64,000 nucleotides of DNA from Patescibacteria group bacterium (GTDB lineage Bacteria; Patescibacteriota; Doudnabacteria; UBA920). The DNA lies in contig DAIMCS010000002.1 in the NCBI GenBank assembly GCA_036726225.1, positions 3,994 through 67,993 on the forward strand, in the 5' to 3' direction. Both the position numbers and the translations under genes were made by a program. Within the stretch, counting starts at the first letter, position 1. The number at the start of each line of letters is the position of its first letter. Under the pieces are notes generated by a model. The model ran no database searches and was not told where the DNA came from. It worked only from the letters and a program-made list of their open reading frames with translations. Positions 4,447 through 35,100 of the stretch are shown here, piece after piece.

Positions 4447-4521
4447 TGGTGGTCCCGGTTGGAATCGAACCAACATCAATGCCTTAGAAGAGCACTGCTC
4501 TATCCATTGAGCTACGGAACC
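4447..4521 (-). tRNA. tRNA-Arg (anticodon TCT), CCA encoded
   Basis: Hand-folded reverse complement: acceptor ggttccg/cgggacc, D-arm gctc-aatggata-gagc, anticodon loop CUUCUAA (UCU), T-arm gttgg-ttcgatt-ccaac, discriminator A, then CCA. Confidence 0.8.
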
Positions 4522-4855: not shown

Positions 4856-5274
4856 CAGGTCACAATTTGCTGCGAGCTTACGGGGCTCGTTAAAGCGAAC
4901 CGCCTGTCGCCCTTTGCAGTTTTTTCTTATCCCAAAAATCCCTTTAATAAATCTCGGGTGGATTTTTTGGGAGACTTAAATATTAAGAAACTTGATGAAC
5001 TATAACACGAATCTCTTTATTTTTCAAGCATTTGGAAACAAATATTATTGCAGGGCGATGTATTTTGTAGAGGCGAGAATTAACTTTGAAAGGGCCGCCT
5101 TATGCAAATGTCCAAATATATATGCGACGATTGCGGTTTTTCCGGACAGAAGTCGGGCGTGTGTATGTTTTGCCAAATACCTTTAACTGCTAATTCAAGA
5201 CGAAAACCGCTTGCAAAAAATACCGGCCAGGTAGTAGGGGAGTATAAGTGGTTTTCTTAAACTGGTTCCCTTTT

Positions 5275-10739: not shown

Positions 10740-11213
10740 TTATTTATTAGACTTATAGGAACTGGGTACCGAAGCTTCTTCGAAGTCAAATTTGTCTTTA
10801 TTCTTTTTTACTTCTTCTGCCAACAAATTTCCAATCATATTTGGGTCTACTTCTGATGGCACATCAATGGTTACAAAATTTTCAACTACACCGCTAGTTT
10901 CAGTACCGCAGCCAAGAGCATTAATTCTTTTTATTACTGAATTTGTATAATCACCTTTTTCATCCTCAAACACTTTAAACCTAAATGTACTATGGCCGCT
11001 AAACTTTATAGTTTTATCGTACATTAATAAACCATCAGGTGCAGGGGTCGCACTTACTATATCACCCCAACTAACACCAAAGACTCCGAAAGGAATATTT
11101 CTAATTTCATACTCATTTTCGGAGAGTTTTTCTGCAAACATTGTTTCTGTATGAGACCCTAAAAGCGAATCTTCTACATGAAAACCTATTTTTACCAAAT
11201 TATCATTGTTCAT
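10740..11213 (-). CDS. Putative immunity protein for the adjacent orphan Rhs-CT (HNH-like) cassette
   Basis: Small ORF immediately downstream of, and co-directional with, the toxin cassette 11245..12579. No known domain; assigned from position only. Confidence 0.4.
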   Translation of the reverse strand: MNNDNLVKIGFHVEDSLLGSHTETMFAEKLSENEYEIRNIPFGVFGVSWGDIVSATPAPDGLLMYDKTIKFSGHSTFRFKVFEDEKGDYTNSVIKRINALGCGTETSGVVENFVTIDVPSEVDPNMIGNLLAEEVKKNKDKFDFEEASVPSSYKSNK

Positions 11214-11244: not shown

Positions 11245-12579
11245 TTATGGCCAAGATGAAAACGGGTTGATATATTTATTTAGTGGGTTATTTGGGCTGT
11301 TTTTAAACTGCTCCTCAGACTGGGCACCCTTCTTTAAATTACAATCCCTACACTTCACGGAATCATTTTGAGGTGAGTTGTCTCCCCCCGCTTTACGCGA
11401 AGTCTTATGATCGTGATTCTTTTCATCCGGTGAAGGAGATTTCCCTTTTTCTGGCTTTCCGGGCTCTGTGACTTCTTTACCACAGTTGTCACATTTCAAC
11501 TTTCCATCATTTCTAGCTCTATTTTCTTCTTCTGTCTTTTCCTTGGTCTTATTTGAAAACTTACCTCCCGGCAAATATTTTTCTAAAGCAATTCCAGTAG
11601 AAGTCTGTGGCGTGGACATTAATGAAGCTGGTGTACTTTGATTTCCGATTGAATCAGGACCAGCTAAAGTCCATCTAATACCATAATACGCCCCAACTGT
11701 GCCGCCAACAACTATGGTTGCTCCCCCTAATACATATGCACCGACAATTACTTCACCACCGAGAGCAGCGCCTCCTCCACCAAATACCAATGTGCCTGCT
11801 GCAGCGTTTTCTCCAGTCGGATCAGTATTCACAATTGGGTTGTTTCTAGCATAACTATAACTATTCCACTGCTGAGGGTCTTGAAGATACTCATCTGGAG
11901 TTTCCCAGAACATAGGATCCTGACTTATAAACTTCGCATTTGTGCCATTGAAATAACGGCTATTCATGTAGGTCAAAGAACTGGTTGGGTCATACTCGTG
12001 TCCGCTAATACCTTTTCTTTGTTCGTTGAATCCAGTTTGTTCATCTATCCTAAAAGTACCGTAGGGATATGTATCGACAATTTGGACCACGGCGCCAGCA
12101 TCTGAGGTCGAGACATTTGCTCCACCGAGATGATCAACATGCACGTAACTTACTGTGGTAGAAGTACCCGTTCCAACTACAGTAGCAATAAGTGTGCCGT
12201 CTGGTAAGAATATATGTTTAGTTGGAACGCTTCCGGTTATATTATATTCCTTCGTTGGATAATAAGTAGTAACTGAGGATGTGGTAGCGACTGTCATCTT
12301 CACACGCTGACCCCAGGGATCATAGCTAAAAGTACTGGTGGCCGTCGTTGAAGTAGCCTGAGTCAGTCTATTGTTGTAATCCCAAGTGTAAGATACAGCT
12401 GGGGTACTGGTTCCTATTCTTTGGGTGAGTAGGTTTCCATTGTTATCATATGTATAAGCATAGGCGCTACCCGCTGTAGTGGTCGCTACAGCATGGGGAT
12501 TCAAATAAGCAGGGGTATTTGTAGCATAGGTATACGTAGTGGTAGTGGACAAGCCGACATCTACTCCAGATTTTAGCAA
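11245..12579 (-). CDS. Orphan Rhs C-terminal cassette (terminal YD repeats + Rhs core end + variable toxin tip with an HNH-like Cys/His motif)
   Basis: Shares TTTYTYATNTPAYLNPHAVATT...RYFNGTNAKFISQDP...NNPIVNTDPTG with the C-terminal part of the 2654-aa Rhs. The divergent tip contains CDNCGK...NHDH...CRDCN. Confidence 0.75.
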   Translation of the reverse strand: MLKSGVDVGLSTTTTYTYATNTPAYLNPHAVATTTAGSAYAYTYDNNGNLLTQRIGTSTPAVSYTWDYNNRLTQATSTTATSTFSYDPWGQRVKMTVATTSSVTTYYPTKEYNITGSVPTKHIFLPDGTLIATVVGTGTSTTVSYVHVDHLGGANVSTSDAGAVVQIVDTYPYGTFRIDEQTGFNEQRKGISGHEYDPTSSLTYMNSRYFNGTNAKFISQDPMFWETPDEYLQDPQQWNSYSYARNNPIVNTDPTGENAAAGTLVFGGGGAALGGEVIVGAYVLGGATIVVGGTVGAYYGIRWTLAGPDSIGNQSTPASLMSTPQTSTGIALEKYLPGGKFSNKTKEKTEEENRARNDGKLKCDNCGKEVTEPGKPEKGKSPSPDEKNHDHKTSRKAGGDNSPQNDSVKCRDCNLKKGAQSEEQFKNSPNNPLNKYINPFSSWP

Positions 12580-12628
12580 TGCTTAAAGGATAATATTAAT
12601 TTGTCAAAGGGCTTTAAGCTGGAATACT

Positions 12629-12853
12629 TTACTCAGTAAACGGTTCCAGCGTTTCTTCTTTTACAAAAGTGTCAGAACCATCGCTAAACTCAATAGTATA
12701 AAAAGCTGCACCTATTGGGGCTTTGAAATGTTTAGACTGATCCTCCGTTTCCACGGTAGTGATCCCGACTATCACCGCATAGGTTTTTAAAATTTTGCCG
12801 TTTTGATCTCTTGTTACTAAATTCACTTGATCATTGTAAGTAAATTTTGTCAT
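12629..12853 (-). CDS. Small immunity-like protein (paralog family of 3)
   Basis: 74 aa, directly downstream of orphan cassette 12868..14163. Paralogous to 14239..14463 and 14468..14704 (shared ...FYTIEF.DGSD.....LEPFTE). Confidence 0.5.
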   Translation of the reverse strand: MTKFTYNDQVNLVTRDQNGKILKTYAVIVGITTVETEDQSKHFKAPIGAAFYTIEFSDGSDTFVKEETLEPFTE

Positions 12854-12867
12854 ATAGTTATGCTTAA

Positions 12868-14163
12868 TTATTTAATCGGTAGCCAAGGAGTGCCGTCTGG
12901 ATTTGTAACTCCAGGCCTATGCGCATGAGGCTGTTGGGATCTGGGGTCTTGGTGCTTTGAAGAAGCAGGATGACCCTTATCTATTCGAGTTCCTGTTTGC
13001 TTGCCCTGAGAATCTTTTACTTGAATAGCCTCTCCATCGGGGGAACCTTGGATCTGCTCTCCCGCCCCCACTGGAATCGCATTACCTTTAGGGTCAACTA
13101 CAATAACAGGTTCTTTCACAGGCCCCACAAAAGGATTAGAATTGTCTGTATCGGTGGTTGAGGTGTCAGCAGTCAGTATAGAACTAGGTGTGGTTTGATT
13201 GCTAATATCTGGACTAGCCAATCCCCACCTAAGAGTTCCGGCAACGCCAATTGCCGCTGCACCACCAATTGCGACTGGCGGAGCATAAACTCCAATGAGA
13301 CCCCCGATGTAACTAAAAATAGGTGCTAATGAAGGAATATTAATTGTTGGAAGTGCTCTGGTAGCTTCACCGACAGCTGCTTGCCCTGTTGGATCTGTGT
13401 TTACTATTGGATTATTCAGTGCGTAACTGTAAGAATTTAGATTTTGAGGATTTGATAAATACTCCTTTAATTCCTGATCAGTCATCTCTTGAAGGTGACG
13501 ATTATCACCCATAGCTAAAAATGCTGGATCTTGGGACAAGAATCTAGTATTGGTTTGATTGTAATAGCGCTGGTTAAGATAGTTTAAATTTGAAGCAGGA
13601 TCAAACTCATAATTTGCAAATTTTCTTTGGCTGTTTAGTCCATTCTGTTCATCTATTCTTGCAGTCCCATACGGATAATAATCGGTTAGTTCAACTACAG
13701 CCGGATTTTCGCCGTCACTTGTTGCTAGATTCATACCACCTAGGTGATCTGTATGCACATACGACACTGTTGTAGTTGTACCAGTTCCAACAACAGTCGC
13801 GATTAAAGTACCGTCGGGTAAGAAGATATTTTTAGTAGGAGTTGAACCTGTTACGTTATACCCCTTGCTTGGATAATATGTTGTGGCGGATGAAGTGGTG
13901 GCTACTGTTTGTTTTATACGCTGTCCCCAAGGATCGTAACTGTATGTTGACGTTGCACTATTTCCCACTGCCTGGGTCATACGGTTATTATAATCCCAGG
14001 TATAGGCAGCTGTAGTTGTAGCACCGACTGCTGAGGAAGTAAGGTTGCCGTTATTATCATAAACGTATGTGGTGGCCGAGGCAGCAGTCGTAGTTGCCAC
14101 AGCGTGAGGATTAAGATAGGCCGCTGTTCCTGTAGCATAGGTATACGTAGTGGTAGCAACCAA
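12868..14163 (-). CDS. Orphan Rhs C-terminal cassette with toxin tip ending ...HAHRPGVTNPDGTPWLPIK
   Basis: Same conserved Rhs-core end (NNPIVNTDPTGQ). The tip is ~80% identical to that of 14729..16033. Confidence 0.75.
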   Translation of the reverse strand: MVATTTYTYATGTAAYLNPHAVATTTAASATTYVYDNNGNLTSSAVGATTTAAYTWDYNNRMTQAVGNSATSTYSYDPWGQRIKQTVATTSSATTYYPSKGYNVTGSTPTKNIFLPDGTLIATVVGTGTTTTVSYVHTDHLGGMNLATSDGENPAVVELTDYYPYGTARIDEQNGLNSQRKFANYEFDPASNLNYLNQRYYNQTNTRFLSQDPAFLAMGDNRHLQEMTDQELKEYLSNPQNLNSYSYALNNPIVNTDPTGQAAVGEATRALPTINIPSLAPIFSYIGGLIGVYAPPVAIGGAAAIGVAGTLRWGLASPDISNQTTPSSILTADTSTTDTDNSNPFVGPVKEPVIVVDPKGNAIPVGAGEQIQGSPDGEAIQVKDSQGKQTGTRIDKGHPASSKHQDPRSQQPHAHRPGVTNPDGTPWLPIK

Positions 14164-14238
14164 GCCAACACCTTCTCCGGGTTTTAGCGAGATTTTATAA
14201 GGCTATTCAGTTGTCAAAGGACTTTAAATTCGCATACC

Positions 14239-14463
14239 TCACTCAGTAAACGGTTCCAGCATATCTTCTGGAGCCAAAGTATCTGAGCCATCTGCAAACT
14301 CAATTGTATAAAATGTTGTACCTATAGACGCATTAAAATGCTTTGAGTCCTGTTCAGTTTTAACAGGCGATATACCGACTACTGCAGCATAAACTTTAGA
14401 AACGACATTTCCGCTTTCATCAAGTTTTTTTAAATAAACACTGTCTCCCCATGTAAATTGCAT
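14239..14463 (-). CDS. Small immunity-like protein (tandem paralog 1)
   Basis: Start placed at internal MQFTWGDSVYLKKLDE. ~75 aa, paralog of 14468..14704 and 12629..12853. Confidence 0.5.
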   Translation of the reverse strand: MQFTWGDSVYLKKLDESGNVVSKVYAAVVGISPVKTEQDSKHFNASIGTTFYTIEFADGSDTLAPEDMLEPFTE

Positions 14464-14467
14464 GTGA

Positions 14468-14704
14468 TTATTCGTTATTAGAAGAAAACGACTCCAGGAC
14501 ATCTTCCCGGACAAATTCCTGCATAGATCCATCACCAAATTCAATATTATACAAATTTGCACCAATAGGAAGTCCAAAGCGTTTTACATCCTCCTCTGTT
14601 TCAACCTGGGTCACCCATATCACTGCCGCAGGAACTTTAGACACTACTTTCCCATGTTCGTCAAGTTTTTTTAAATAAACACTGTCTCCCCATGTAAATT
14701 GCAT
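14468..14704 (-). CDS. Small immunity-like protein (tandem paralog 2)
   Basis: MQFTWGDSVYLKKLDEHGKVV... The 5' DNA (ccatgtaaattgcatgtgatt) is duplicated at 14441 and 14681. Confidence 0.5.
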   Translation of the reverse strand: MQFTWGDSVYLKKLDEHGKVVSKVPAAVIWVTQVETEEDVKRFGLPIGANLYNIEFGDGSMQEFVREDVLESFSSNNE

Positions 14705-14728
14705 GTGATTAAAACTTAAAATTATTAA

Positions 14729-16033
14729 TTATTTTATTGGTAACCAAGGAGTTCCGTCAGGATTTGTAACCCCAGGTCTATGGGCGTGAGGTTGTTGCCC
14801 CCTCGTATCAGGATGGGTACTAGCTGGATGTCCATTATCTATACGAGTTCCTGTGGTAGTCTTTCCATCAGATTGTTTGACATCAACCCACTTTCCATCC
14901 TTTGATGTTTTTATCTGCTCGCCTTTCCCAACGGGAATAGCGTTACCTTTAGGGTCAACTACGGTAACAGGTTCCTTTACCGGCCCTACAAAAGGATTGG
15001 AATTATCGGTATCGGCTTCTGGCTGGGCATTGGCATCACCTTCAGCAGTTAATATTGAACTAGGGGTTGTCTGGTTACTAATATCGGGGCTTGCCAATCC
15101 CCACCTCAGACTTCCCACTATAGCGACTGCTCCTACCCCACCAATAGCGACAGGTGGCGTATAGCTAATTATAACACCGCCGATATAATAAAGAATAGAT
15201 CCGAGAGCGGGAAGCGCAGGAGCAAGTCTCATAGCGCCTTCTGCGGATTGACCTGTAGGATCTGTGTTCACTATCGGATTATTGAGAGCGTAACTGTAAG
15301 AGTTCAGGTTTTGAGGGTTTGATAAGTATTCTTTTAATTTTTGGCCAGTCATTTCTTCGAGGTATTGATTGTCACCCATTGCCAAGAAAGCTGGATCCTG
15401 GCTTAAGAATCTAGCGTTGGTGCCATTGTAGTAGCGCTGGTTAAGATAATTTAAATTGGAGGCCGGGTCAAACTCGTAATTAGCAAACTTACGCTGGCTG
15501 GAAAATCCGCTCTGTTCGTCTATTCTTATATTTCCATAGGGCAGGTAATCTGAAAGTTGCTGGATTTCGCCTTCTTCGGAGGTCGCTACATTCATACCAC
15601 CGAGATGATCGGTATGGATATATGACACGGTTGTAGTTGTGCCGGTTCCAACTATCGTTGCTATCATAGTTCCGTCTGGTAGGAATATGTGCTTGGTCGG
15701 AACGCTGCCGGTAATATTGTATTCTTTGCTTGAATAGATAGTTGTAGTAGCACCTTGGGTCTGTTTTACTCTTTGACCCCAAGGATCGTAAGTGTAAGTT
15801 ACCGAAACTCCGGTAGATGAAGCTTGCGTTAAGCGATTATTATAATCCCAAGTATAGGCAGTTGATGTAGCGCCGCTAGTGATTATACCCGTAAGGTTTC
15901 CGTTGTTGTCATAAGTGCTGGTAGCAGTTCCTATCTTCTGTGGGGCATGGGGGTTTAAGTAAGCAGGAGTGTTTGTAGCATAGGTATACGTAGTGGTAGC
16001 ACCCAAGCCAACAGCTTCTCCCAACTTCAGCAA
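14729..16033 (-). CDS. Orphan Rhs C-terminal cassette (same tip family as 12868..14163)
   Basis: Begins inside YD repeats (TTTYTYATNTPAYLNPHA). Core end DPAFLAMGDNQYLEEM...NNPIVNTDPTGQ, then a GxxxG-rich TM-like segment and the ...HAHRPGVTNPDGTPWLPIK tip. Confidence 0.75.
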   Translation of the reverse strand: MLKLGEAVGLGATTTYTYATNTPAYLNPHAPQKIGTATSTYDNNGNLTGIITSGATSTAYTWDYNNRLTQASSTGVSVTYTYDPWGQRVKQTQGATTTIYSSKEYNITGSVPTKHIFLPDGTMIATIVGTGTTTTVSYIHTDHLGGMNVATSEEGEIQQLSDYLPYGNIRIDEQSGFSSQRKFANYEFDPASNLNYLNQRYYNGTNARFLSQDPAFLAMGDNQYLEEMTGQKLKEYLSNPQNLNSYSYALNNPIVNTDPTGQSAEGAMRLAPALPALGSILYYIGGVIISYTPPVAIGGVGAVAIVGSLRWGLASPDISNQTTPSSILTAEGDANAQPEADTDNSNPFVGPVKEPVTVVDPKGNAIPVGKGEQIKTSKDGKWVDVKQSDGKTTTGTRIDNGHPASTHPDTRGQQPHAHRPGVTNPDGTPWLPIK

Positions 16034-16069: not shown

Positions 16070-16501
16070 TTAGAGGTCTTTAAAAATTTCAGAATCATAT
16101 TCACCTATTGATACCATTACCTGAACATCATCCAATGTGCCACAGTCAAAATATTGATGGAAATCATCACCATCTTTAGCAGAAGCAAAAATATCAAGCT
16201 CATTGATAAATTGTTCAAATTCTTTAGCACCCAAACCCCATTCAAATAAACTATCGTTAATTTTTTTCATACCCGTTACATCAGGAAGAACTTTTAACAG
16301 TACATCGACGTTGGATTTTATAAACATCGGTATTCCTCCAAAATTTACACTTGTTCCGGGTCTTCCTGCATAATCCTTTAATAGATCTCTAAATGAAGCG
16401 AAAGCTAAGGGACTTCCGGAAAACAATAATGTATCTGCGCTTTTAAAATTCTTAAAAAAACCAAAGTAAATTTTATTATCTTGTTTGTTCATATTTATCA
16501 T
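16070..16501 (-). CDS. Putative cognate immunity protein of the full-length Rhs toxin
   Basis: Its start codon overlaps the Rhs stop (ATGA at 16498..16501), implying translational coupling. No known domain. Confidence 0.5.
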   Translation of the reverse strand: MINMNKQDNKIYFGFFKNFKSADTLLFSGSPLAFASFRDLLKDYAGRPGTSVNFGGIPMFIKSNVDVLLKVLPDVTGMKKINDSLFEWGLGAKEFEQFINELDIFASAKDGDDFHQYFDCGTLDDVQVMVSIGEYDSEIFKDL

Positions 16502-19500
16502 TTTTTAGGTGTATTAGAGGACGGATTGTTTTTAAGAGGAGAATCATTACCAATTGGAACATTTCTCCACTCATTTCCCTGTTTTCCATCTGGACCCGGT
16601 GGTTGACCAGGTTTATGAGGATTATAGTCCCAATGAGGATTATGGCGCTCATCACCGGGGAAATATCTCCATTCGCCTCCTTTAGAATCCCAATAACTCT
16701 TCCCTCCTTCCTTTCCTTCAGAAGGACGACTAGCGGGACCCACTTTTAATTCTCCTGGATTTTCTACTGGTGGCGCGACACCGTCAGGTGCCAAACCTCT
16801 GGGAGTCTCAATCTTATCATTTGATTGGTCTGCAGGCATTATTGGCCCTATAAAAGGTTGGGGGGTCATCGCTTCTCTTTCAGCGTCTGTAATTGCTGGT
16901 GCATTAGCTGTACGGGGAAATACCAATACGCCTATTGCCGCGCCTATGCCTAGAGCAGTCGCGGATATTCCCGAAAGGATACCTGCCCCAATTTTAGCAA
17001 ATGGCATAGCAAGTGTGGCGGCGTTACCAGTTGGATCAGTATTGACGATTGGGTTATTTAAAGCATAGCTATAGGTATTTAAGTTTTGAGGATTAGATAA
17101 GTATTCCTTTAGTTGCTGGTTAGTCATTTCTCTTAACTGACGACTATCGCCCATAGCCAAAAACGCGGGATCTTGGGATATAAATTTTGCGTTCGCACCA
17201 TTGAAATAACGGCTGTTCATGTAGGTCAAAGAACTGGTTGGATCATACTCATGACCGCTGATTCCTTTTCTTTGTTCGTTGAACCCGTTTTGCTCATCTA
17301 ATCTGAAAGTACCATAAGGGTACGTATCAACAAGTTGGACTACTTCTCCGGAATCTGAGGTGGAGACGTTTGGTCCGCCAAGATGGTCGGTATGGATGTA
17401 ACTAACAGTTGTGGAAGTGCCGGTTCCAACTATGGTAGCTATCATGGTGCCGTCTGGTAAGAATATATGTTTGGTAGGAACACTTCCAGTTATATTGTAT
17501 TCTTTTGTCGGATAGTAAGTTGTAGCGCTGGATGTTGTCGCAACGGTCATTTTGACCCTCTGGCCCCAGGGGTCATAGGAATATGTACTGGTCGCATTAT
17601 TACCAAGAGCCTGCGTCAGCCTGTTGTTATAGTCCCATGTGTAAGAAGCTTGGGTGGATGTCCCTATCGCAGTAGAGGTTAAATTACCATTGTTATCATA
17701 GGTAAAGCTAGTGCTGGTTGCGACAGTAGTCGTGGCCACAGCGTGAGGATTCAAGTAAGCAGCCGTTCCTGTAGCATAGGTATACGTAGTGGTAGTGCCG
17801 TTTTCAACTCGGGTTAATATATTCCCAACACTGCTATAGGTATAACTATAGTTGTAAGGTGTGGTTGAAGCAGCAGTCGTGGAAGCATTGGTTAGCCTGT
17901 TTAAGTCGTCGTAAGAATAGGTAACCACCCTTTCTAAGGTCGTGCTGGCAGATTCCCTTATTTGGGTAATATTGCCGTTGTTATCGTAAGTGTAAGTTAA
18001 GTCCTGAATGGCAGGGCCCGGGGAGGGTGGCACCGGCCAATCACCCGTGTAAAGGTCAGAAATTTCTTCATCTGTCAGAGCGCGGTTAAATATGGAAAAG
18101 TCATCCACAATTCCGTCTGCTTTATTACCACCGTGAATAGCAGCCCCTACAACAGCTCCGGAAACTCCATAAGTTCCGCTCCCTCCACCGCTCACTGAAA
18201 TAGTGCCCAAATAGGTGCCGTTTATATAGGCTTTGGTAGATGAACCGTTATAGGATAAAGTTAGCATACTGAAGTAACTGGTGGGTACGGTTGTACTGTA
18301 AGATACCTGGTTGTCTGATACAGAATTCTTTTGGTAGATATAAAGCAGCTTTGGCGTACCACTGTCGTCGTAGTAGTCTATACGCATATTTACCTTGTCA
18401 GTGTCGGAAAACGCACCACCAAGTTCCCATCTCGCTCCGCCTGTTGGGGCGGCCGGCGGCTTGTACCAGAAATTCAAAGTAAAACCGGAAAGGAAGGAGT
18501 AGCCGTTTGGGTCGTTGGTATTGTTAAGCCATTTGCTGCTGTTAGAGCTACCCATATCCGCGCCATTGTTAAATTTAGCGGAATTGAAGGGTGTACTGCC
18601 ATTGTTCGTAAGGTTGCTGCCGACTGAGGCAGTGGTATTTTCAAGCCGGAAATATTCTTGAATGTTAGGGTCTGTGTAAAGTGAAGTTTCGTAAAGCTCA
18701 ACTGCCGCTGCGTTGGCTGTTTTGGGAGTAAATTGGGCAATAAGAAAACCAAAAGCTTTGCTAACGCCATTTGCAAAAGCGCGATAAATCTTGGACAAAA
18801 CCCCTTCCTCTTGAATTTCCTGAGGCAAAACTTCTTCCGGTTGTGGTGTGAGCTGCGATTCGGGCGTAGTTAAATTTGTAGGCTGGGGTGTAATTATTTC
18901 AGGGCTGGTTGTAGCCTCGACAACTTCAGGAACAGGCATTACGGGTTCTTCTAAAACACTTCCCTGTGTTGAGGTTGGAGTCGCTTCTTCCTCTTGTGAG
19001 GAAGTGGATGTTGCGGTGTTATTTTCAGCGGCCGGAGCCTGGTCTATTAAGTTTTCGGGCGTGTCGCTGGCAATATATTCTGGCGGTGGGTCTGCGACTA
19101 TTACTTCGGCTTTGCCTAGAGTCTCTTTTTGTTTTAATTCTTCTTCCTCTTTTATTTTTTCATCTTCATTATTAGGCAAGAGCTCTGGAGTTGCTTCTTC
19201 GTCAACAATGGCCGGTTCTTGAACTTGACCTAAGCTCTCTTGGGCATCCATTTGGGATTCTTCCTGTCCTGACTCTCCCTCACCAAACATCATAGATTCT
19301 TCTGAGGGCAGCCTTGTAACTTTTTGCTGCAGCCGGTACATATGGGCGACATCGTAAGTGTTTGTAGTAATAGCCCCATTGGCAAAAGTAATTACAGTGG
19401 GTTGTTCTAGAGGTGAGTAATCGTAACTGCTGACTACATCTGTATAAGAGCCGTCTGTGCTTTCTTTTCTTTGAACCTGGTCTAAAAGTCCCGCGCTGTT

Positions 19501-22500
19501 GTAAATATATTTAACCTGCGAGCTGTCAGGATTAGTTATGGTTAACCGGTTCCCGGCTCGGTCGTAAGTATAGGAAGTTGTGTAGCTGCTGCCCGTTATG
19601 ATTTTTACCTCCTGCGTAAGCTGACCTAAGGCGTTGTAGGTGTTGGTAAGGTTTACTGTCGTGGAGGAAGCCGTGCATAAACGCCCTTTGCCCTGGGTGC
19701 AGGAATCGTAGGTGTAGGTAACTTCTGTGCCACCGCTAGTGCCGGTGTGATCTTCCGTGAGTTGGCGATTAATGTCGTCGTAAGTGTAGTTAATGGTTTG
19801 AGACTTAGGGTCAATTTTTTGCGTAAGATTGCCCGCGTCGTCGTAGGTGTAAGTATAGGTGCCGTAAGTGGCGTCTGACGGCGAGTGCAAGTCTTGGGCA
19901 GTAAGTCTTCTGCCTAAACCGTCATAAGTAAAGCTTCGGGTGCTGCTGGCAGAATCCGTAATAGTTAAAAGATTACCCAAATAGTCGTAAGTGTAAGCGG
20001 TTGGGTGGATGGAAGCGCCGTTGCGCTCATCTACCTGTTTTAAATTACCATAGGCATCGCTATGTAAATCTTTAAGTTTGCCGTTGGGGTCTGTGACGGT
20101 AGTTTTCCAATCCTGAAAAGCTGTAGTGGTGGTGCCGTTGGCATTGGTGGTTGTTCCCACCCGGTATAAAGCGTCGTAAGTATAGTTTATAAATAAGGCA
20201 GATGTGGAAGTCGCGGTCGTGCTGGCTAAGCCGGACGAAAAATAAGGCAAAGATTCTTTTTGCAAAGAACCAATGTTATTGTAAACATAATCTTTAACAG
20301 AATAGTTGCTGCCTTCCGCCTCTTTGCGCTCCTGCTTTTTTCTGCCCAAGCCGTCCAGATATAAGTAGCTGTCTGTACTCGTGCTGGTGTCTAAGTAGAC
20401 TGACTTTTTTACGCTAAATGAACTGGTGGCGTTAGTGTAAGTAAAAGTTACTGCGGTCAGTAAAGTGGAAGTGGCGCTCGGGTCCGGCTGTTTTTGTTCA
20501 ATTACCCGGTCTAAGCCGTCGTACACATTTACAAAAATGTTTCCGTTTGGGTCTGTTGTGGTGGCAATTTTACCCGAAGAATAGTCGTAAGTCAGCTGAG
20601 TTGCCTGGCTAAGCGGGTTTAAAACCGTTGCGGGATAAAGATTAAAGCTGTCGTAGGTGTAAGTTGTAGTTTTGTCCCTTGGGTCTTTTTCCGAAGTAAC
20701 CAGACCGTAAGCGTTGTAAGTTTTTTCAATATCAACATAGGTAGAACTTGCCTTCCACATTTCTTGCTTGGTCAAATTTCCCTTATTTACAAGTCCTAAG
20801 TTTAAACTGTCATAATAATATTTATTCTCCTTAACTTTAGTGCTCCCGTTGTTAACTGTGGATTCAGTTGCCAATAAACTCATGGCAGAGGTCGTTGAAC
20901 TTGTGGCGTATGTATAAGTGGTGGTAAAATCGTCTGTTCCGGAATCGCTGAAGGTGCCGTCATCGCTGCCGGTTACTTCCCCATATTCAATTTTTTGGGT
21001 AATATTGCCTTTAGAATTGTTATAAGTGTAGCTTTCGGCTTTGTCCTTGTGGCTTGCGTCGCCGTCGTAAGTAAATTCCACTGTTTGGGCAAGCTTAACA
21101 AAGCCTGCCAGACCGTTAGCAGTGGTTGTTGCGCTATCCCATTTGTTAATTGTCTTTTTGAATAAGTTACTGTTTGCGTTGTATTGTTCAACCCTGTAAG
21201 GCTTGCCGATTTTAAAATAGTTGTCAGAAAATTCGCCGGTGGAGGTGGCGCTTGTGTTGCCCTGATGAAAAAAGGTTTTGGTCACATTTCCGGCCGCGTC
21301 GGTCTTGTCTACCTGGTTAAAGCCAGCAAAGCGCCTGTCAAAAGGACCGTTGAAATAATACTTGCCTCCACTGTAAGTAAAAGATTCTGCTGTACTGGTT
21401 GCTCCGTTTTCGCTTGTGGTAATTTGACTTACAGTCTGAACAATTAAGGGTAAGGTATTTAACTGAGTAGTGCTGGCATAATATTGGGAGGATGGTTTGT
21501 AGCTAATTTCGGTTTTACCGCCTGTTGGGTAAGTGATTCGGGTAAGTACATCTACCGGTTTTATATTGTTAACATTACTGCCTGATATATCATTAAAATA
21601 ATAAAAAGAATCGGCTAAGCCATTTCCATCTAAATCTCCGATTAATGAATGAGTGTAATGTGGTACGGAGTTATCGCTAAACTGGGCATAGCTTCCGTCG
21701 CCAATATCATCACTCCAACCATTACCTGTGTTTAAATAAGTTCTACGCGTCAGTTCGCCATCCCGTAAAGACTGGTTAATATCGGGTAAACCATCACCAT
21801 TGTACTCAAATACTCTTACGCCGTCATCGCCCCAGGTAGTTTGCAAATTTAGGGGTGGGGCGTAGCGAGAATAGCTATCCCAAGTGCTTGAGCTGTTGTT
21901 TATGTAAGCTTGTTTTTCGCTGCTACTGCCATCGTGGTAACCTCGTAAAAAGTCTGTTAATGTGTCCCCATTTAAATCAGCATTTATTCTTCCGCTTTTC
22001 GGGACTAACGGAAGAGTCCAGCTATTGCTTTGGGTCCAACCTTGACCGTTGTTTAAATAGACATGGTAATAAACAAAAGCCCCGTCTTCTAACATCCTAA
22101 AAATGTCCGGTAAACTGTCACCGTTAATATCACCAATTTCAGCGAACCTCTGATTACCCACGTTGGTAGTACCGTCTGAAAAGGACAAAAGAGGATTCCA
22201 GGTAGAACTGGCGGTCCAGCCTGCACCGGTATTTAAATAGGCTGCGCCTCCATAAGCATTGCTGGCACTAAGCATATCTTCCAATCCATCTCCGTTAACA
22301 TCCGCCATCCTGACACCCAAATCACACCACGGGTCTGTACAGCTACCTCCGTAAGCATAAAAATCGATAGGAGGCTGGTAAGTACTGGTGGCCGTAAAAA
22401 TACTTTGACCATTGTTTAACCACGCAACCCGTGTGGAACTCGCGCTTTGGTCTTTTGCCGCGTACATAATGTCAGTAAAACCATCCCCGTTAATGTCGCT

Positions 22501-24462
22501 GGCTATGGCGTAGTTTAAAGCGCTAGGCGGAGTGAAACTGGCATTACTAGACCAGCCCCCTTGTCGGGCTTGATAAGTAAATAGCGTTGAAGGCAAGCTC
22601 GTAGTACTGCCGTTATCGTCAATGCCGTTTTCGGTAACGCCGCTTAAAAGAGACCTGTAACCATTGTCACCGGTTGTGTAACTAAGAGAATATTTTTTAT
22701 GTAAACTTGTATCCTTCTTAATGTTTATTTCTTTTATACGTGAATTGGTTACTACTTGAAAACCAGTTTTTGTAGATGTAGAAGTGTCTGTCCTCGTTTC
22801 CCGGTTAAATTCAATATTATATAGAGGTGTGCTCGTGGTATTGCCGGCGTAATAAATGTTGGAAGGATAAATTTGAGAGCCGGATTTATAATAGCCGTAC
22901 TTTATTTGGTTACCATTGGTGTCCAGAACTCTGTCTAACAGCCATTTATAAATACGGCTTGGATTTTGCGGGTCTGCAAGTGTTGGTGATACACTTTGCC
23001 CCGACCCGCCGGACGGATATAGACTAAGGACTTCAGAACCACTTAAGTTTCTGTTAAAAGCAGCAACATCGTCTACAATGCCGCTGGCTTTGTTGCCTCC
23101 GTGGATTGCAGCGCCGACAACATAGCCTGAAGCTCCATAAGTCCCGCTTCCGCCCCCACTGGCCGACACATTTCCAACGTCAACCCCATTCATATAACCG
23201 CGCAGAGTAGAGCCGTTATACGTTACGGTCAGCATTGTAAAAATGCTGGTTGGCAGCGTGGTGGCATAAGTAACAGCAGTATCAGACACCCCTGTTTTTT
23301 GGTATATAAACTGTACTTTAGGAGTTCCGCTGTCATCAAAGTAGTCTATGCGAATATTTACTTTGTCAGTATCGGAAAATGCTCCGCCTAACTCCCATCT
23401 TGCGCTCCCGGTTGGTGAAGACGGGGGTTTGTACCACAGGTTTAAACTAAAGCCGCTTAAAAATGAATCCGAGTTTGGGTCCCGGCTATTCGTTAAATAA
23501 CGAGTTGAGTTACTAAAACCAAAATCAGAGCCATTGGCAAACTGTCCCGGGTTAAAAGGTGTTGAGCCGTTATTGGTCAGGTTATTACCAATTGTGGCAG
23601 ACGTGTTTTCGAGCCTAAAATATTGTTTTAAATTCGCGTCGTTGTAAAGCGAAGTTGAATACAATTCCACCGGCAAGCTTGCTTCAGGGTCACCAAAATA
23701 AAACCGGTTTCCTTTTTTGTCCGTAGCAGTCCAAACATTATTAGAAAAGACATAATTTAAAAATTCGCCGTTGTCTACTCTTGAAACATAAGTCGTGCTG
23801 GCGGTTGTGCTGGCAACAAGCTCGCCTGACAAAGACGAACTGAAATAACTCGTTGTGGAAATATTATTGTAGATGTTGTTAAGGCCGCTTTTATTTAATC
23901 TTTCAATATAAGGTATATTAATGCCCCAACCGGCGCCAAATTGGGAATCTATTTCTTTACTGTTTTGGCTGTTGTATTGAAGTTTTAAATCGGGCTGAAA
24001 GCCGTTGCGTCCGGGAGGCACAGCAATGGGGTATTCAGTCAGCAAAGAACCGCTGCTTTCATCGGCGTGGACAGGGGAAGCGGGTTTATAACCGGTTTCA
24101 ATTCTCGGATCCGGGTCCGAAGAGTCTAATAGCATTTCCGGTGGGGGTTCTTCGCTTTCGAGCTGTTGGTCAATCTGGCCGCTTTCTTCCGTAGGCTGTA
24201 GTTGTTCTTGGGGTAAAGGGTTAGGTTCGGGTGTGGGGGTAATTAATTCCGTTTCAGGCGTTGTTGTATTGTTCGATTCTAAGGAGGGGATAGTTGTAGT
24301 TGTTTGTGCAAAAGCGGAGGCTAAGGGAGTGAATAAAAAAGAAAAAGCTAACAAAATTGCTGTTAGCTTTTTAACTGCGTTAAATTTTAATACTTCAAAA
24401 AAGTCTTCTATAGAGGGCCCGGGAGCTTCGGGAAAGAGTTTTGTAATTTGATTCTCTTTCAT
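16498..24462 (-). CDS. Giant Rhs/YD-repeat polymorphic toxin (2654 aa): signal-like N-terminus, LamG-like domain, FG-GAP/VCBS-like repeats, YD repeats, P/E-rich linker, second LamG + YD-repeat/Rhs core, C-terminal toxin tip
   Basis: Numerous YD repeats (YTYDALYRV, YTYDYLGNL, FTYDGLGRRL, YTYDDAGNL). FG-GAP-like DINGDGFTDI/DVNGDGLEDM motifs. Rhs core end RYFNGANAKFISQDP...NLNTYSYALNNPIVNTDPTG followed by a ~210-aa unique tip. The LamG-like block (WELGGAFSDTDKVN...GIVDDVAAFNR) occurs twice. Confidence 0.85.
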   Translation of the reverse strand: MKENQITKLFPEAPGPSIEDFFEVLKFNAVKKLTAILLAFSFLFTPLASAFAQTTTTIPSLESNNTTTPETELITPTPEPNPLPQEQLQPTEESGQIDQQLESEEPPPEMLLDSSDPDPRIETGYKPASPVHADESSGSLLTEYPIAVPPGRNGFQPDLKLQYNSQNSKEIDSQFGAGWGINIPYIERLNKSGLNNIYNNISTTSYFSSSLSGELVASTTASTTYVSRVDNGEFLNYVFSNNVWTATDKKGNRFYFGDPEASLPVELYSTSLYNDANLKQYFRLENTSATIGNNLTNNGSTPFNPGQFANGSDFGFSNSTRYLTNSRDPNSDSFLSGFSLNLWYKPPSSPTGSARWELGGAFSDTDKVNIRIDYFDDSGTPKVQFIYQKTGVSDTAVTYATTLPTSIFTMLTVTYNGSTLRGYMNGVDVGNVSASGGGSGTYGASGYVVGAAIHGGNKASGIVDDVAAFNRNLSGSEVLSLYPSGGSGQSVSPTLADPQNPSRIYKWLLDRVLDTNGNQIKYGYYKSGSQIYPSNIYYAGNTTSTPLYNIEFNRETRTDTSTSTKTGFQVVTNSRIKEINIKKDTSLHKKYSLSYTTGDNGYRSLLSGVTENGIDDNGSTTSLPSTLFTYQARQGGWSSNASFTPPSALNYAIASDINGDGFTDIMYAAKDQSASSTRVAWLNNGQSIFTATSTYQPPIDFYAYGGSCTDPWCDLGVRMADVNGDGLEDMLSASNAYGGAAYLNTGAGWTASSTWNPLLSFSDGTTNVGNQRFAEIGDINGDSLPDIFRMLEDGAFVYYHVYLNNGQGWTQSNSWTLPLVPKSGRINADLNGDTLTDFLRGYHDGSSSEKQAYINNSSSTWDSYSRYAPPLNLQTTWGDDGVRVFEYNGDGLPDINQSLRDGELTRRTYLNTGNGWSDDIGDGSYAQFSDNSVPHYTHSLIGDLDGNGLADSFYYFNDISGSNVNNIKPVDVLTRITYPTGGKTEISYKPSSQYYASTTQLNTLPLIVQTVSQITTSENGATSTAESFTYSGGKYYFNGPFDRRFAGFNQVDKTDAAGNVTKTFFHQGNTSATSTGEFSDNYFKIGKPYRVEQYNANSNLFKKTINKWDSATTTANGLAGFVKLAQTVEFTYDGDASHKDKAESYTYNNSKGNITQKIEYGEVTGSDDGTFSDSGTDDFTTTYTYATSSTTSAMSLLATESTVNNGSTKVKENKYYYDSLNLGLVNKGNLTKQEMWKASSTYVDIEKTYNAYGLVTSEKDPRDKTTTYTYDSFNLYPATVLNPLSQATQLTYDYSSGKIATTTDPNGNIFVNVYDGLDRVIEQKQPDPSATSTLLTAVTFTYTNATSSFSVKKSVYLDTSTSTDSYLYLDGLGRKKQERKEAEGSNYSVKDYVYNNIGSLQKESLPYFSSGLASTTATSTSALFINYTYDALYRVGTTTNANGTTTTAFQDWKTTVTDPNGKLKDLHSDAYGNLKQVDERNGASIHPTAYTYDYLGNLLTITDSASSTRSFTYDGLGRRLTAQDLHSPSDATYGTYTYTYDDAGNLTQKIDPKSQTINYTYDDINRQLTEDHTGTSGGTEVTYTYDSCTQGKGRLCTASSTTVNLTNTYNALGQLTQEVKIITGSSYTTSYTYDRAGNRLTITNPDSSQVKYIYNSAGLLDQVQRKESTDGSYTDVVSSYDYSPLEQPTVITFANGAITTNTYDVAHMYRLQQKVTRLPSEESMMFGEGESGQEESQMDAQESLGQVQEPAIVDEEATPELLPNNEDEKIKEEEELKQKETLGKAEVIVADPPPEYIASDTPENLIDQAPAAENNTATSTSSQEEEATPTSTQGSVLEEPVMPVPEVVEATTSPEIITPQPTNLTTPESQLTPQPEEVLPQEIQEEGVLSKIYRAFANGVSKAFGFLIAQFTPKTANAAAVELYETSLYTDPNIQEYFRLENTTASVGSNLTNNGSTPFNSAKFNNGADMGSSNSSKWLNNTNDPNGYSFLSGFTLNFWYKPPAAPTGGARWELGGAFSDTDKVNMRIDYYDDSGTPKLLYIYQKNSVSDNQVSYSTTVPTSYFSMLTLSYNGSSTKAYINGTYLGTISVSGGGSGTYGVSGAVVGAAIHGGNKADGIVDDFSIFNRALTDEEISDLYTGDWPVPPSPGPAIQDLTYTYDNNGNITQIRESASTTLERVVTYSYDDLNRLTNASTTAASTTPYNYSYTYSSVGNILTRVENGTTTTYTYATGTAAYLNPHAVATTTVATSTSFTYDNNGNLTSTAIGTSTQASYTWDYNNRLTQALGNNATSTYSYDPWGQRVKMTVATTSSATTYYPTKEYNITGSVPTKHIFLPDGTMIATIVGTGTSTTVSYIHTDHLGGPNVSTSDSGEVVQLVDTYPYGTFRLDEQNGFNEQRKGISGHEYDPTSSLTYMNSRYFNGANAKFISQDPAFLAMGDSRQLREMTNQQLKEYLSNPQNLNTYSYALNNPIVNTDPTGNAATLAMPFAKIGAGILSGISATALGIGAAIGVLVFPRTANAPAITDAEREAMTPQPFIGPIMPADQSNDKIETPRGLAPDGVAPPVENPGELKVGPASRPSEGKEGGKSYWDSKGGEWRYFPGDERHNPHWDYNPHKPGQPPGPDGKQGNEWRNVPIGNDSPLKNNPSSNTPKK

Positions 24463-32193: not shown

Positions 32194-35100
32194 ATGAGTC
32201 GGATGAAAAGAGTTCTGAAGGTTTCGGCGGTTTTTATTGGAATAGTTTTTTCACAAACCCTAGCGTTTGGGCAGCAGTGCACAGCCGCCAGAGTTACGAA
32301 CGCACAGTTCTCAAGCCCGTTCGGCAATGGAACAGTTTTTAAGACTGGTAGCCCTGGCAGTTGGCATGACGAAAACGCTCACATAGATAATGCAGGTACA
32401 AATGTTTATAGCGCCTGCGCCGTGGATATGAATGTAGGGACAGGTAGCGATGATGAAGGTATGCCTTTGGTTGCGGTTGCAGACGGAACGGTTGTCTACG
32501 CCGACATCAGAAGTGGTTTTGGCAATACTGTCATTATCCAACATTCTCCAAATACACGGAGTCAGCTTTCTCATTTGTATTACAATCCCAAAATCAAACC
32601 TGGTTTGAAAGTTGGGGATATGGTGAGGAAAGCTTCGGTAATTGGGTTTTTGGGTAACACGGGTGGATCGTCTAGCCCTCACCTACATTTCGAATGGCAA
32701 GAGATTGACTCTTTAGATCCGGTAATTCGGGATGATAAAGGTAACACAAGCGACAAATGGAAGTCTTATCACTTTCCACATATGGATGGGCAAATGGTGA
32801 CCAATGGCGGGACGGTTTCTTCTTTCAATGGGAGAATTGTTCCTGATATTGCGGTTACATATGCCGACGGTACATTCGTTAAAGACATTAATAGCACTGA
32901 TATTTACTATGTGGATGGAGGAAAACTGAGAAAATTTGGTTCTTTGGACCACTTTCGTTCTTGGTTTCCGTTCTATACCAATAGTGTTCCTATTGGGGCT
33001 GCAGTGGCTTTGGCAGGAGCTTCGACTATTTCGGCCTACCCAAAGGGAAGCGATATGTCTTTTCGGCCTGGAGTTCTACTGCGGTCCGATAAATTTGCGG
33101 AAAATATTCCCAATTCCATGTTTTATCAAGTCGTCTACGACAATAGCTTAGCCAAAAAAAAGTCCCTAACGTTTGCTCAAATAAATGCTATGGGTTTTGA
33201 AGAAGGCTCTGCTTTGATAGTTAAGGACGCGTTGATTTTAACACTGCCCGAAGCCCCCGATGTAATTATCCCTCCTTATTGCCCTGCAATCACAGCCCTT
33301 CCCGGCGGGAAATTCATGGATGAGAGTGTGGTTTTTACTGTTTCATCTTGCACCACTCCACCTGCGCTCACAGCCATGTGTTCGCCGGCCAGCTCAATTT
33401 TGGTAGCTGGCGACAGCAAGCAGTTCACACTCACCCCCACGGGAGGCACACCGCCGTACAATTATTCTTGGAGCACGGCTAGTTCTGGCATCTTCGTTTC
33501 GGGTTCAGACTCAACTACCAACGTTAGTTTTCCTGCCATGGGTAGTTATATAATTACTGGCAAGATAACAGACAGCGGTAGCGTTTCGGCCGGAACTCAG
33601 CAGACAACCCAGAGTTCATGTTCAGTCCAGGTCAACGGGGTGGTGCCGATTGGGCCGACGGAGTTTTCCAAAACTTCTTTGGCTGCCGATCCAAGCCTTA
33701 TCTCGTATTGGCCGCTTGAAAACACTTCGGACGTCAAAGCAAAAAATCCGCTTACAAACAACGGAGCAAGTTTTGAACCCGCCCAGTTTGGCAATGGCGC
33801 GAATTTAGGTTCAAACAATACAGTCCGTTATTTGACCAGCAAGAACGACCCTCGCTCATACGCTTTTTTGAGCGGGTTTGCCTACAACTTGTGGTACAAA
33901 CCTTCTTTTGCCCCAAGCGGTGGGGCCAGGTGGGAATTAGGCGGCGGCTTTTCTGACCAGGATAAAGTTAACATTCGGATAGACTATTTGGATGACGGTG
34001 GAGTTGCAAAACTGCTGTTCATCTACCAAAAAAATGGCGTGTCCGATACCCAGGTTGCTTATCCAACCACATTGCCCACCAACCTCTTTACCATGTTAAC
34101 TATTACTTACGACGGTTTTACCGTCCGGGGTTTTGTTAACGGCAATGAAGTTGGAAACGTTGCGGCAAGCGGCAGTGGCGTAGGTTTGTACGGTGAGTCG
34201 GGTTTTTCCGTTGGCGCGGCAATCCATGGAGGAAACAAAGCCAGCGGAATAATAGACGACGTAACAGCTTTCAGCCGGCCGCTTAGCGCTTCGGAGGTAG
34301 CGCAAGTTTTTGGCGGGGGCGGAGCTCCAGTTACACCGATTACAGGTCCGGTTGAGCTTTCCGCATCATCCTTGTCAACAGACCCAAACCTCGTTGCCTA
34401 TTACCGTTTTGAGGGTAACAGCAACGACAGCCGCGGCTCTAACCACGGCAGCGGCAATTCGGTTGCCTACTCTACAGCAAACGGCAAATTCGGCCAGGGC
34501 GCGGGCTTTAACGGCCTGTCTTCGAAGGTCGATTTTGGCAACCCCTTAGGTCTACAAATCACCGGTGCCATAAGCATCCATTTTTGGCTTAAGGACAACG
34601 GTTCATTTACAAATCCTGACGTCGTGGTTATGAAGAGCAATGACAGCAACTTGCGTTCCTACGCTGTCTATTTTGACTCCGGTTCGCTTACTGCTAATTT
34701 TTCTAGCGACGGCGGAGGCTCCAATAACTTTATTTTTTGGACGACGGTTAGTTGGGATCAGCAATGGCATATGTGGGATATTGTATTTGTTCCTAACGGC
34801 AGTAATTCCGTCCACAAAATTTACAAGGATGGGGTGCTCCAGCCAGACAACATTAGTTCCAGTAGTTTTAGCGGTACTGCCGTCTACAATTCTGGTTCTA
34901 ACCTGGTTGTTGGCCAAAAGAGCAACGGTGGATGGCAAATGCACGGTGCTTTGGATGACGTGGCAGTTTTTAACAGGGCATTGAGCGCTTCGGAGGTAGC
35001 GCAAGTTTTTAGTGGGGGCGGAGCTCCAGTTACACCGAGTACAGGTACGGTCAAGGTTGATGTCAGCGGCTACAGCGGAACTATTAACTGTAAGCTTAAC

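Follow-up and report, generated by a model that had tools for sequence, protein, structure and literature searches.

Genes and features at the locus

We analysed a stretch of 64,000 nucleotides (nt), here called the window, from a Patescibacteria contig (DAIMCS010000002.1 of assembly GCA_036726225.1, positions 3,994 to 67,993 of the forward strand). Its minus strand carries one giant open reading frame (ORF), whose product of 2654 amino acids (aa) we call Q. The assignment of the host is based on the window's PNPase, whose identity is 82% to a Candidatus Doudnabacteria entry and 80% to Patescibacteria entries. The Q reading frame is without interruption over its whole length. An identical 2654-aa product is encoded on 8 contigs, including JGI 3300012231 (96 kb), ENA ERZ27267613 (202 kb) and ERZ27267632, and three homologs from other assemblies (P0001, P0002 and P0003; 49-54% identity to Q) show the full Q architecture end to end. 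A tandem-repeat scan of the Q gene, linker included, found none.

The Pfam content of Q comprises SpvB, FG-GAP, TcdB_toxin_midN, RHS_repeat and two Laminin_G_3 domains (Table 1). Matches to PF05593 (E 1.2e-27, in 7 stretches) and TIGR01643 (49 bits) place Q among the Rhs/YD-repeat toxins, and matches to PF03534 (60.6 bits), PF13517 (64.1 bits) and PF12256 (49.3 bits) identify its TcB-type domains. SpvB, propeller, TcdB_midN and Rhs core are each present once. The TcdB_toxin_midN match lies at aa 964-1063 and RHS repeats continue onward to aa 1715. Within the Rhs core, two Asp motifs were found, 'FISQDP' at aa 2427-2432 and 'NNPIVNTDPTGN' at aa 2469-2480 (containing 'NTDPTGN'), in which D, P and G are nearly invariant in two alignments (A3 and A4).

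A single-sequence phmmer search against the PDB returned generic Rhs proteins only, and a profile built from homologs was needed to reach TcB and TcC. This profile matches TcdB2-TccC3 at E 1.5e-59. It aligns the first part of the SpvB domain to TcdB2 residues 40-204; over the propeller region, profile positions 346-851 align to TcdB2 323-790, and positions 352-851/854 to TcdB1/YenB. The FG-GAP propeller of Tc toxins is the gate that binds TcA. A Pfam scan of 30 window ORFs revealed no TcA-type domain, and neither did the pre-computed Pfam hits within 10 kb of P0001 and P0002 (less where a contig ends).

Table 1. Features of the Q gene and of its surroundings, in coordinates of the window. A slash marks a putative cleavage point. 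KD, Kyte-Doolittle hydropathy; pLDDT, predicted local distance difference test.
Feature	Position	Strand	Residues of Q	Remarks
Whole ORF (Q)	16498..24462	-	2654 aa	probable secreted TcB-TcC-type (BC) Rhs cocoon toxin
Signal peptide or anchor	24307..24384	-	27-52	'...KKLTAILLAFSFLFTPLASAFA/Q'; hydropathy peak KD 1.96; K-K, hydrophobic core, A-x-A
N-terminal P/T/E-rich linker	24073..24306	-	53-130	P 19%, T 15%, E 15%
SpvB/TcB N-terminal domain, first part	23677..24054	-	137-262	PF03534 positions 4-88 at aa 137-228
LamG cassette 1 (LamG1), slot 1 (SpvB-domain loop)	23017..23670	-	265-482	PF13385 E 9.6e-16
SpvB/TcB N-terminal domain, continuation	22543..23001	-	488-~640	PF03534 positions 141-182 at aa 488-529; C-terminal limit approximate
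FG-GAP beta-propeller	21673..22515	-	~650-930	PF13517, PF01839; limits approximate
YD shell, N-terminal block	19318..21615	-	950-1715	TcdB_toxin_midN (PF12256, 49.3 bits), PF05593; includes start of TcC-like half
Acidic P/E/T-rich disordered linker, first part of slot-2 insert	18808..19317	-	1716-1885	no Pfam match; pLDDT about 30
Signal-peptide-like helix ending A-x-A	18703..18807	-	1886-1920	'VLSKIYRAFANGVSKAFGFLIAQFTPKTANA/AA'; common to 7 fused relatives
LamG cassette 2 (LamG2), slot 2 of YD shell	18049..18702	-	1921-2138	PF13385 E 2.1e-16; pLDDT 60-90
YD shell, C-terminal block, predicted continuation of same shell	17323..18024	-	2147-2380	RHS_repeat; pLDDT 85-90
Rhs-associated core	17023..17322	-	2381-2480	TIGR03696 43 bits vs cut-off 32.5 (match aa 2381-2479)
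C-terminal toxin region	16501..17022	-	2481-2654 (174 aa)	Gly-zipper hydrophobic helix aa 2488-2519 (KD 1.94) and un-named HNPHWDYN-motif domain; no Pfam match
Putative cognate immunity gene	16070..16501	-		143 aa; 4-nt overlap with toxin stop
Orphan Rhs C-terminal cassette 1	14729..16033	-		57% identity to Q aa 2237-2541; RHS_repeat
Orphan Rhs C-terminal cassette 2	12868..14163	-		53% identity to Q aa 2237-2637
Orphan Rhs C-terminal cassette 3, HNH-type toxin	11245..12579	-		72% identity to Q aa 2237-2513
Third copy of Q's LamG type	33661..34311	+		63% to LamG1, 55% to LamG2 (tblastn); 9 kb from Q gene

The internal repeat

Self-alignment of Q revealed one strong internal match. When the first 1700 aa were compared with the rest, aa 265-482 aligned without gaps to aa 1921-2138, with 148 of 218 residues identical (68%, E 2e-94). 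Self-BLASTP and self-BLASTN of the whole sequence gave the identity hit alone, and the internal match emerged after Q was split. Both copies are Pfam Laminin_G_3 domains (PF13385, 58.7 and 60.9 bits, profile positions 15-151). The edges of the repeat are sharp: 2 of 40 residues are identical before the copies and 0 of 40 after them. The only other similarity is between the leader and the second linker and is of low-complexity P/T/E type (E about 0.1), and the SpvB segment (aa 137-228 and 488-529) is present once, unrepeated. A first-pass annotation of this DNA had proposed that the N-terminal ~480 aa, leader and LamG together, recur at ~1890-2140. The repetition of the 218-aa LamG domain stands, as does a P/E/T-rich linker ahead of the second copy (E 21%, P 12%, T 10%); the leader and the SpvB N-terminus do not recur, and what had been read as a possible giant internal duplication shrinks to the LamG domain alone.

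At the DNA level, the two LamG copies share 62.8% identity overall and 36% at third codon positions, with a non-synonymous divergence (dN) of 0.27 and a saturated synonymous divergence (dS). The longest run of DNA identical between them is 10 nt, and blastn within the Q gene detects no DNA repeat. Given this divergence, the duplication is old and has been maintained at the protein level.

LamG1 splits the SpvB profile in two, between profile positions 88 and 141. A profile of LamG-less homologs places the LamG1 site in a loop of TcdB2, around residues 165-187.

A single predicted YD shell

LamG2 and the linker before it stand between two blocks of YD repeats. Both sequences that anchor this site, slot 2, were located in 84 of 120 listed homologs, and in 34 of these 84 the chain is continuous past the linker position. 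One insert-less example, P0008, reads '...NTYDAAKLYRLSSKITTISGGAHAQDLTYSYD...' and '...NTYDAAKLYRLSSKITTISGGAHAQDLTYSYDANGNIT...' across slot 2, and Q has 437 extra residues between those flanks. The shell strands on either side of Q's slot-2 insert thus adjoin one another directly in 34 homologs, which is the pattern of a decorated shell like that of mosquito SGS1.

Structure prediction was carried out both with and without the insert. An AlphaFold2 (AF2) model of Q aa 1455-2654 shows two confidently predicted YD blocks (pLDDT above 90 for aa 1455-1719 and 85-90 after), a disordered linker (about 30) and a separate LamG domain. This model superposes on a single TcC, with a template-modelling (TM) score of 0.74 (3.8 A root-mean-square deviation) for TccC2, 0.71 for YenC2 and 0.66 for RHS2. 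With the insert deleted (aa 930-1716 joined to 2147-2482), the shell is predicted as one body with a confident junction (pLDDT 84.6, predicted TM score (pTM) 0.81). The insert-deleted shell, a prediction and not an experimental structure, resembles the TcdB2-TccC3 cocoon with TMq 0.78-0.80 (4o9x, 6sup, 6h6f_F); its TM scores are 0.5-0.6 against Rhs proteins of type VI secretion systems (T6SS) and about 0.3 against teneurin-like proteins. Because the insert-less homologs, the model of aa 1455-2654 and the insert-deleted model agree, Q is predicted to have one YD shell.

Insertion slots and split relatives

The two slots differ in how widely they are used. Slot 1 is filled in Q and P0001-P0003 only, with essentially nothing there in the other homologs for which both slot-1 anchors could be located. 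At slot 2, 34 of 84 homologs are empty (at most 15 aa), and 48 of the 84 hold at least 150 aa (150-1564). These slot-2 inserts are LamG-like in 14 of the 48 cases, one of them a double LamG; others contain Ig_Rha78A_N, Bact_surface_Ig-like with Gly_rich_2, DUF4082, or beta-rich domains without assignment. From these alignments, slot 2 is a predicted hairpin of the TcC-like half and a family-wide insertion hot spot.

A third slot was seen in the C-terminal shell block, at the equivalent of about aa 2290. It is filled in P0015, P0037, P0039 and P0054 with domains bearing a 'FLPFDTSALPD' motif or with Ig-like repeats, ahead of the 'Y.YD..GQRV' strand.

In some relatives, the chain itself is broken at slot 2. 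Four of them (P0080, P0081, P0082 and P0084) end at Q position ~1714-1716. At the P0081 locus (L045), gene A ends with '...PESLGL' and TAA, and gene B starts 6 nt further on in the same frame with 'MINIMKKFLIQLAVLLGLWTLSATSVFA/AITFD...'; its product opens with a canonical signal peptide and continues through a display domain to '...NALQDLRYTYDALGNITQIVD...', which is the right flank of slot 2. At the P0082 locus (L043/L044), gene A ends with '...PETLILN' and TAA, and gene B begins 4 nt on in the +1 frame with 'MTTMKKLFCTFFIVLCPFVASA/ATAKIL...', again a canonical signal peptide, followed by a Gly-rich domain and '...TTLQDLRYSYD...'. Gene A of the split relatives also bears a signal peptide of its own, and its tail is homologous to the start of the linker in the fused forms ('PSEESMMF' in Q; 'EIESLMM', 'GESLMSE' and 'GDSLMSS' in P0001-P0003).

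Seven fused proteins share a conserved 'FFSKIY...K..F[LI]..QF...[TA]xA' element directly before LamG2, and the remainder of their linkers is unconserved. In Q, this element is amphipathic, spans ~33 aa and ends in '...KTANA/AA', with a helix predicted at aa 1888-1909 at low pLDDT. The conserved A-x-A element suggests a relic, possibly still functional, of the signal peptide of a former gene B. On the strength of the split relatives and of this signal-like element in the fused forms, the linker is a plausible site of in-frame fusion between two genes, and Q most probably represents the fused form, in which a relic or still-used signal peptide precedes LamG2. The first-pass annotation had suggested an in-frame fusion of two rhs genes. 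A fusion is indeed plausible, at the very point where P0081 and P0082 are split; the fused parts, however, are two pieces of one cocoon and not two rhs genes. A free-standing gene of the form LamG, short YD block, core and toxin, as a fusion of two rhs genes would lead one to expect, was not found among the closest LamG relatives, of which 9 of 9 larger candidates are LamG arrays without RHS.

LamG cassettes and their relatives

Among Q, P0001, P0002 and P0003, LamG domains in orthologous slots are 25-37% identical, with backbones at about 50%. Within one protein, the two copies are 68% identical in Q, 82% in P0002, 27% in P0001 and 36% in P0003, the last over only 102 aligned residues. In a neighbour-joining tree, the cassettes cluster by type, not by slot or host protein; LamG types have thus been shuffled from one slot, protein or genome to another.

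The third copy of Q's LamG type (Table 1) is housed in a secreted protein of 1308 aa (32194-36120, plus strand) with an M23 peptidase, a SprB repeat and two LamG domains, the second of which is 52% identical to the slot-1 LamG of P0001. Since the M23 protein pairs a Q-type LamG with one of P0001 slot-1 type, the data suggest that LamG cassettes are shared among different secreted effectors. No further copy of their own LamG type was found within 10 kb of P0001 or P0002 (less where a contig ends), and this window is thus the sole support for the idea that a genome has one LamG type.

Beyond this set, the nearest relatives are LamG proteins of ~235 aa that stand alone and start with 'MAAVEL...' at the exact cassette boundary (P0129, 60%). 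This group has 868 cluster representatives at E <= 1e-10, and the best 150 are mostly 228-245 aa long. The surroundings of two stand-alone LamG genes were inspected, both on phage-like contigs: one gene lies in a phage structural module together with genes for an SU10 adaptor, phiTE_241_C, an integrase and a glucosaminidase, and the other adjoins a 1901-aa gene. In PHROGs, weak matches to 'virion structural protein' families were obtained (E 1e-8 to 1e-13). From the cassette relatives and by analogy to SGS1 (PMC9935623), we infer that the LamG cassettes are cell-surface, probably glycan, binding modules that would aim the cocoon at a target cell.

Toxin end, immunity gene and neighbouring genes

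The C-terminal toxin differs between Q, P0001-P0003 and the orphan cassettes. In Q, its domain at aa 2555-2648 (16501-16785; motif HNPHWDYN; no Pfam family) recurs at the ends of Rhs proteins and in further genes; its matches, at 45-60% identity, are in Mycobacterium, Actinomycetota, cyanobacterial and proteobacterial genes, several of them Rhs. Homologs of the adjoining 143-aa ORF lie directly downstream of toxin-domain homologs in a Nodosilinea cyanobacterium (L017) and in Betaproteobacteria (L009). Because these homologs follow toxin-domain homologs in two other phyla, the 143-aa ORF fits the role of an immunity gene. The HNPHWDYN domain has the look of a polymorphic-toxin domain that is widespread, so far undescribed and paired with a conserved immunity partner.

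Downstream of Q, an array of three orphan Rhs C-terminal cassettes extends over 11245-16033. All of their matches begin at Q aa ~2237, near 'TYTYATGTAAYLNPHA', and their toxin ends are all different; the HNH match of cassette 3 (E 4.2e-4, 20.8 bits) is just under the Pfam cut-off of 21.4. The putative immunity gene and the orphan toxin cassettes point to an anti-bacterial role.

Several further observations were made in this region. Small ORFs that may encode immunity proteins lie between the orphan cassettes (14239-14577 and 10740-11213), and an IS200-like transposase (9529-10461) closes the array. Every cassette opens with a Gly/Ala-rich hydrophobic stretch right after the predicted Rhs-core cleavage site, the counterpart of Q aa 2488-2519 (KD 1.94), and this stretch resembles the membrane-type helices stored in the SGS1 shell. 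Two tRNA-Arg genes (4447-4521 and 4780-4856) adjoin a tyrosine integrase (5393-6415), GC content falls to 0.37-0.38 over 6-12 kb, and integrases or recombinases are also present at the P0001 and P0002 loci; an integrated element may contain or adjoin the toxin locus. Two divergent Peptidase_C39_2-like genes are found at 123-893 (minus strand) and 1020-1787 (plus strand). Further along, a 1196-aa PKD-domain protein (44236-47826, minus strand) is surrounded by several ORFs of 380-536 aa without a Pfam match (36190-37800, 39293-42919, 48681-50249), and these may together form a further surface-protein block.

Proposed explanation and alternatives

We consider it highly probable that Q is a single secreted Rhs cocoon of BC type, without TcA, from a Doudnabacteria-like Patescibacteria bacterium, with two LamG cassettes on its outside, and that slot 2 serves as an insertion hot spot and as a fusion/fission point. 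The chain runs from a Sec-type signal peptide through an SpvB/TcB-like N-terminus and an FG-GAP propeller into one predicted YD shell with a single Rhs core, and ends in the C-terminal toxin. By analogy to Tc and Rhs cocoons, whose core motifs are seen in Q, the Rhs core would cut off the toxin, which would be kept inside the shell. LamG1 sits in a loop of the SpvB domain and LamG2 in a predicted hairpin of the TcC half, on a flexible acidic tether of ~170 aa. The two copies may bind a cell-surface ligand with avidity. The cocoon might be targeted in parallel with the M23 lytic enzyme that bears the same cassette type, and the three orphan C-terminal cassettes might serve to vary toxin specificity separately. 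A hydrophobic helix opens the cargo and may help the toxin to leave a TcA-less cocoon, as proposed for SGS1.

Several points weigh against parts of this explanation. The insert-deleted model was built on an alignment of insert-less homologs, so that its single shell is partly inherited, and the model of aa 1455-2654, which is independent of it, is that of a fragment (pTM 0.57). The signal-like helix is weakly hydrophobic, with no 19-aa window above KD 1.4, and may be a structural helix instead of a relic. The direction of change may be either fusion of a split pair or fission of a fused gene. The link to phage consists of two genomic contexts and weak PHROG matches. A cocoon without TcA may leave toxin release without an obvious route. 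Finally, the LamG domains could anchor Q to the producer's own surface and not to a target.

This last point can be extended to an alternative in which the cassettes hold both proteins, cocoon and M23 enzyme, on the envelope or S-layer of the producer itself, and a shared cassette means a shared address. The same LamG type does occur in two different secreted proteins of one genome, and LamG types are specific to a lineage (orthologous slots about 30% identical vs about 50% for the backbone); bacterial teneurin-like toxins also bear N-terminal surface-display modules (PMC13018210). However, the closest relatives of the cassettes are the stand-alone LamG proteins with phage structural context, where binding to other cells is expected, the Ig-like and carbohydrate-type domains that occupy slot 2 in other proteins are typical receptor-binding kinds, and SGS1 offers a precedent for paired lectin-type receptor domains on a YD shell (PMC9935623). 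We regard anchoring to the producer as doubtful, and still the most credible of the competing views, and retain binding to a target cell as the preferred function.

Slot 2 was also considered as the classical TcB-TcC gene boundary, which would make Q a plain natural TcB-TcC fusion with a linker. Such single-gene fusions are known (B. pseudomallei ABA52082.1; PMC7861908), and some relatives of Q are split at slot 2. Against this, TccC2 209-663 maps to profile positions 1414-1820 and YenC2 214-689 to 1406-1820, with slot 2 at 1505-1515, so that slot 2 falls, by interpolation, near TcC residue ~300; likewise, the model of aa 1455-2654 spans nearly the whole of TcC, with the insert mid-way. We rejected this placement of the boundary as quite improbable.

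The first-pass annotation had seen in Q two complete LamG-YD Rhs modules with two shells, arisen by fusion of rhs genes or by giant tandem duplication, and had proposed structure prediction as a check for two YD shells. It is true that each LamG domain precedes YD repeats, and there is a weak YD-to-YD match between aa 1468-1642 and 2135-2305 (30% identity, E 2e-7); this match, however, is ordinary similarity among YD repeats. In Q, SpvB, propeller, TcdB_midN and Rhs core occur once each. The supposed second YD core after LamG2 is really the last ~330 aa of the same shell together with the only Rhs core of Q, and this block is contiguous with the first in the 34 insert-less homologs. The structural check gave one TcC-like fit for aa 1455-2654 and one body for the insert-deleted shell, that is, one TcB-TcC-like cocoon. 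Two modules are therefore very improbable.

Least probable of all is an assembly artefact, in which neighbouring genes were joined or a repeat was collapsed across the linker (18.8-19.3 kb), as the first-pass annotation had asked to be checked: the linker is of low complexity and two-gene relatives split there do exist, but mis-assembly is very unlikely because the same product is found on 8 contigs from separate JGI and ENA assemblies, P0001-P0003 share the architecture, the order linker, helix, LamG is common to seven fused relatives, the linker contains no tandem repeat, and between the LamG copies there is no shared DNA stretch of more than 10 nt to collapse.

The one-cocoon explanation can be carried further, to a large, mostly Patescibacteria family of TcA-less BC proteins in which a fixed display slot in the TcC half would trade receptor-binding cassettes (LamG, Ig-like and others) with virion proteins of phage and with the genome's own lytic enzymes. 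The slot would also be a natural cut point, giving two separately secreted halves, and the fused forms might still be cut by signal peptidase into a two-chain cocoon with LamG2 at a new N-terminus. We hold this extended version, taken as a whole, to be rather unlikely and offer it as speculation. If true, target recognition would be re-programmed at slot 2, independently of the toxin, which would be re-programmed at the C-terminus.

The analysis corrects a two-shell misreading of a giant gene. It also indicates that one defined hairpin of a Tc/Rhs cocoon can accommodate large inserts and even a break in the chain, a tolerance that may be useful for BC cocoons as engineered cargo carriers and for the annotation of giant genes in Patescibacteria (the candidate phyla radiation, CPR). 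These bacteria are thought to live attached to host cells. Their secreted proteins appear to share swappable surface-binding cassettes with phage-like proteins and, if binding is confirmed, such cassettes could be of help in predicting the cells recognised by a given Patescibacteria bacterium or phage.

Comparison with known systems

The kind of system to which Q belongs, a BC cocoon and a decorated shell, is already known. In the literature searched, on Rhs or LamG proteins in CPR bacteria and on bacterial shell-inserted receptor domains, we found no description of the Q family; the precedents found were SGS1 and the bacterial teneurin-like proteins (TLPs) only. Nor did we find there an account of a fixed slot for display and cutting within the TcC-like half, of split-gene variants, or of LamG cassettes that a lytic enzyme and phage-like proteins have in common with such a cocoon.

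Q is similar to the Tc BC subcomplex (TcdB2-TccC3, YenB-YenC2) in its SpvB-type N-terminus, FG-GAP propeller and TcdB_toxin_midN, and in its predicted single YD cocoon (TM 0.80), Rhs core with two conserved Asp motifs and variable C-terminal toxin. Unlike that subcomplex, Q has an N-terminal signal peptide, has no TcA found in the window or near its relatives P0001 and P0002, and carries LamG domains in its SpvB domain and in its TcC-like half. It is a single ORF, and its split relatives break about 300 residues into the TcC-equivalent region and not at the TcB-TcC boundary. It stands beside a putative immunity gene and orphan toxin cassettes, and its host is a Patescibacteria (CPR) bacterium.

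With T6SS and other Rhs toxins (RhsA, Tse5, Tse15, RhsP), Q shares YD repeats, an Rhs core, a toxin with its putative immunity gene, and downstream orphan cassettes. It differs from them in lacking a PAAR, VgrG or prePAAR N-terminus and in possessing a TcB-type half with a propeller, and the fold match is 0.5-0.6. Bacterial TLPs are defined by an FN-plug, an NHL propeller and a YD shell, with N-terminal display modules (PMC13018210). Like Q, they (PDB 9IFO, 9PT5) are secreted toxins built on a YD shell, with immunity genes and with adhesion modules that vary (PMC13018210). In contrast, Q has SpvB and FG-GAP domains, gives no NHL or FN-plug matches and has a TMq of 0.31 to 9ifo_A. Q is thus not a TLP as defined in PMC13018210.

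Mosquito SGS1 (PDB 8FJP) is a Tc/Rhs-derived cocoon decorated with receptor domains (PMC9935623). It differs from Q in being eukaryotic, in the nature of its inserts (a carbohydrate-binding module, a lectin carbohydrate-recognition domain and a wedge, not LamG_3), in having neither a long disordered tether nor a signal-like element, and in its weak fold match to the Q shell model (TMq 0.45). In both proteins, one YD shell is interrupted by inserted beta-sandwich domains of carbohydrate-binding type, two similar lectin-type domains lie on the outside, and the C-terminal cargo is hydrophobic and helical (PMC9935623); for Q, these likenesses are as predicted from its domains and models.

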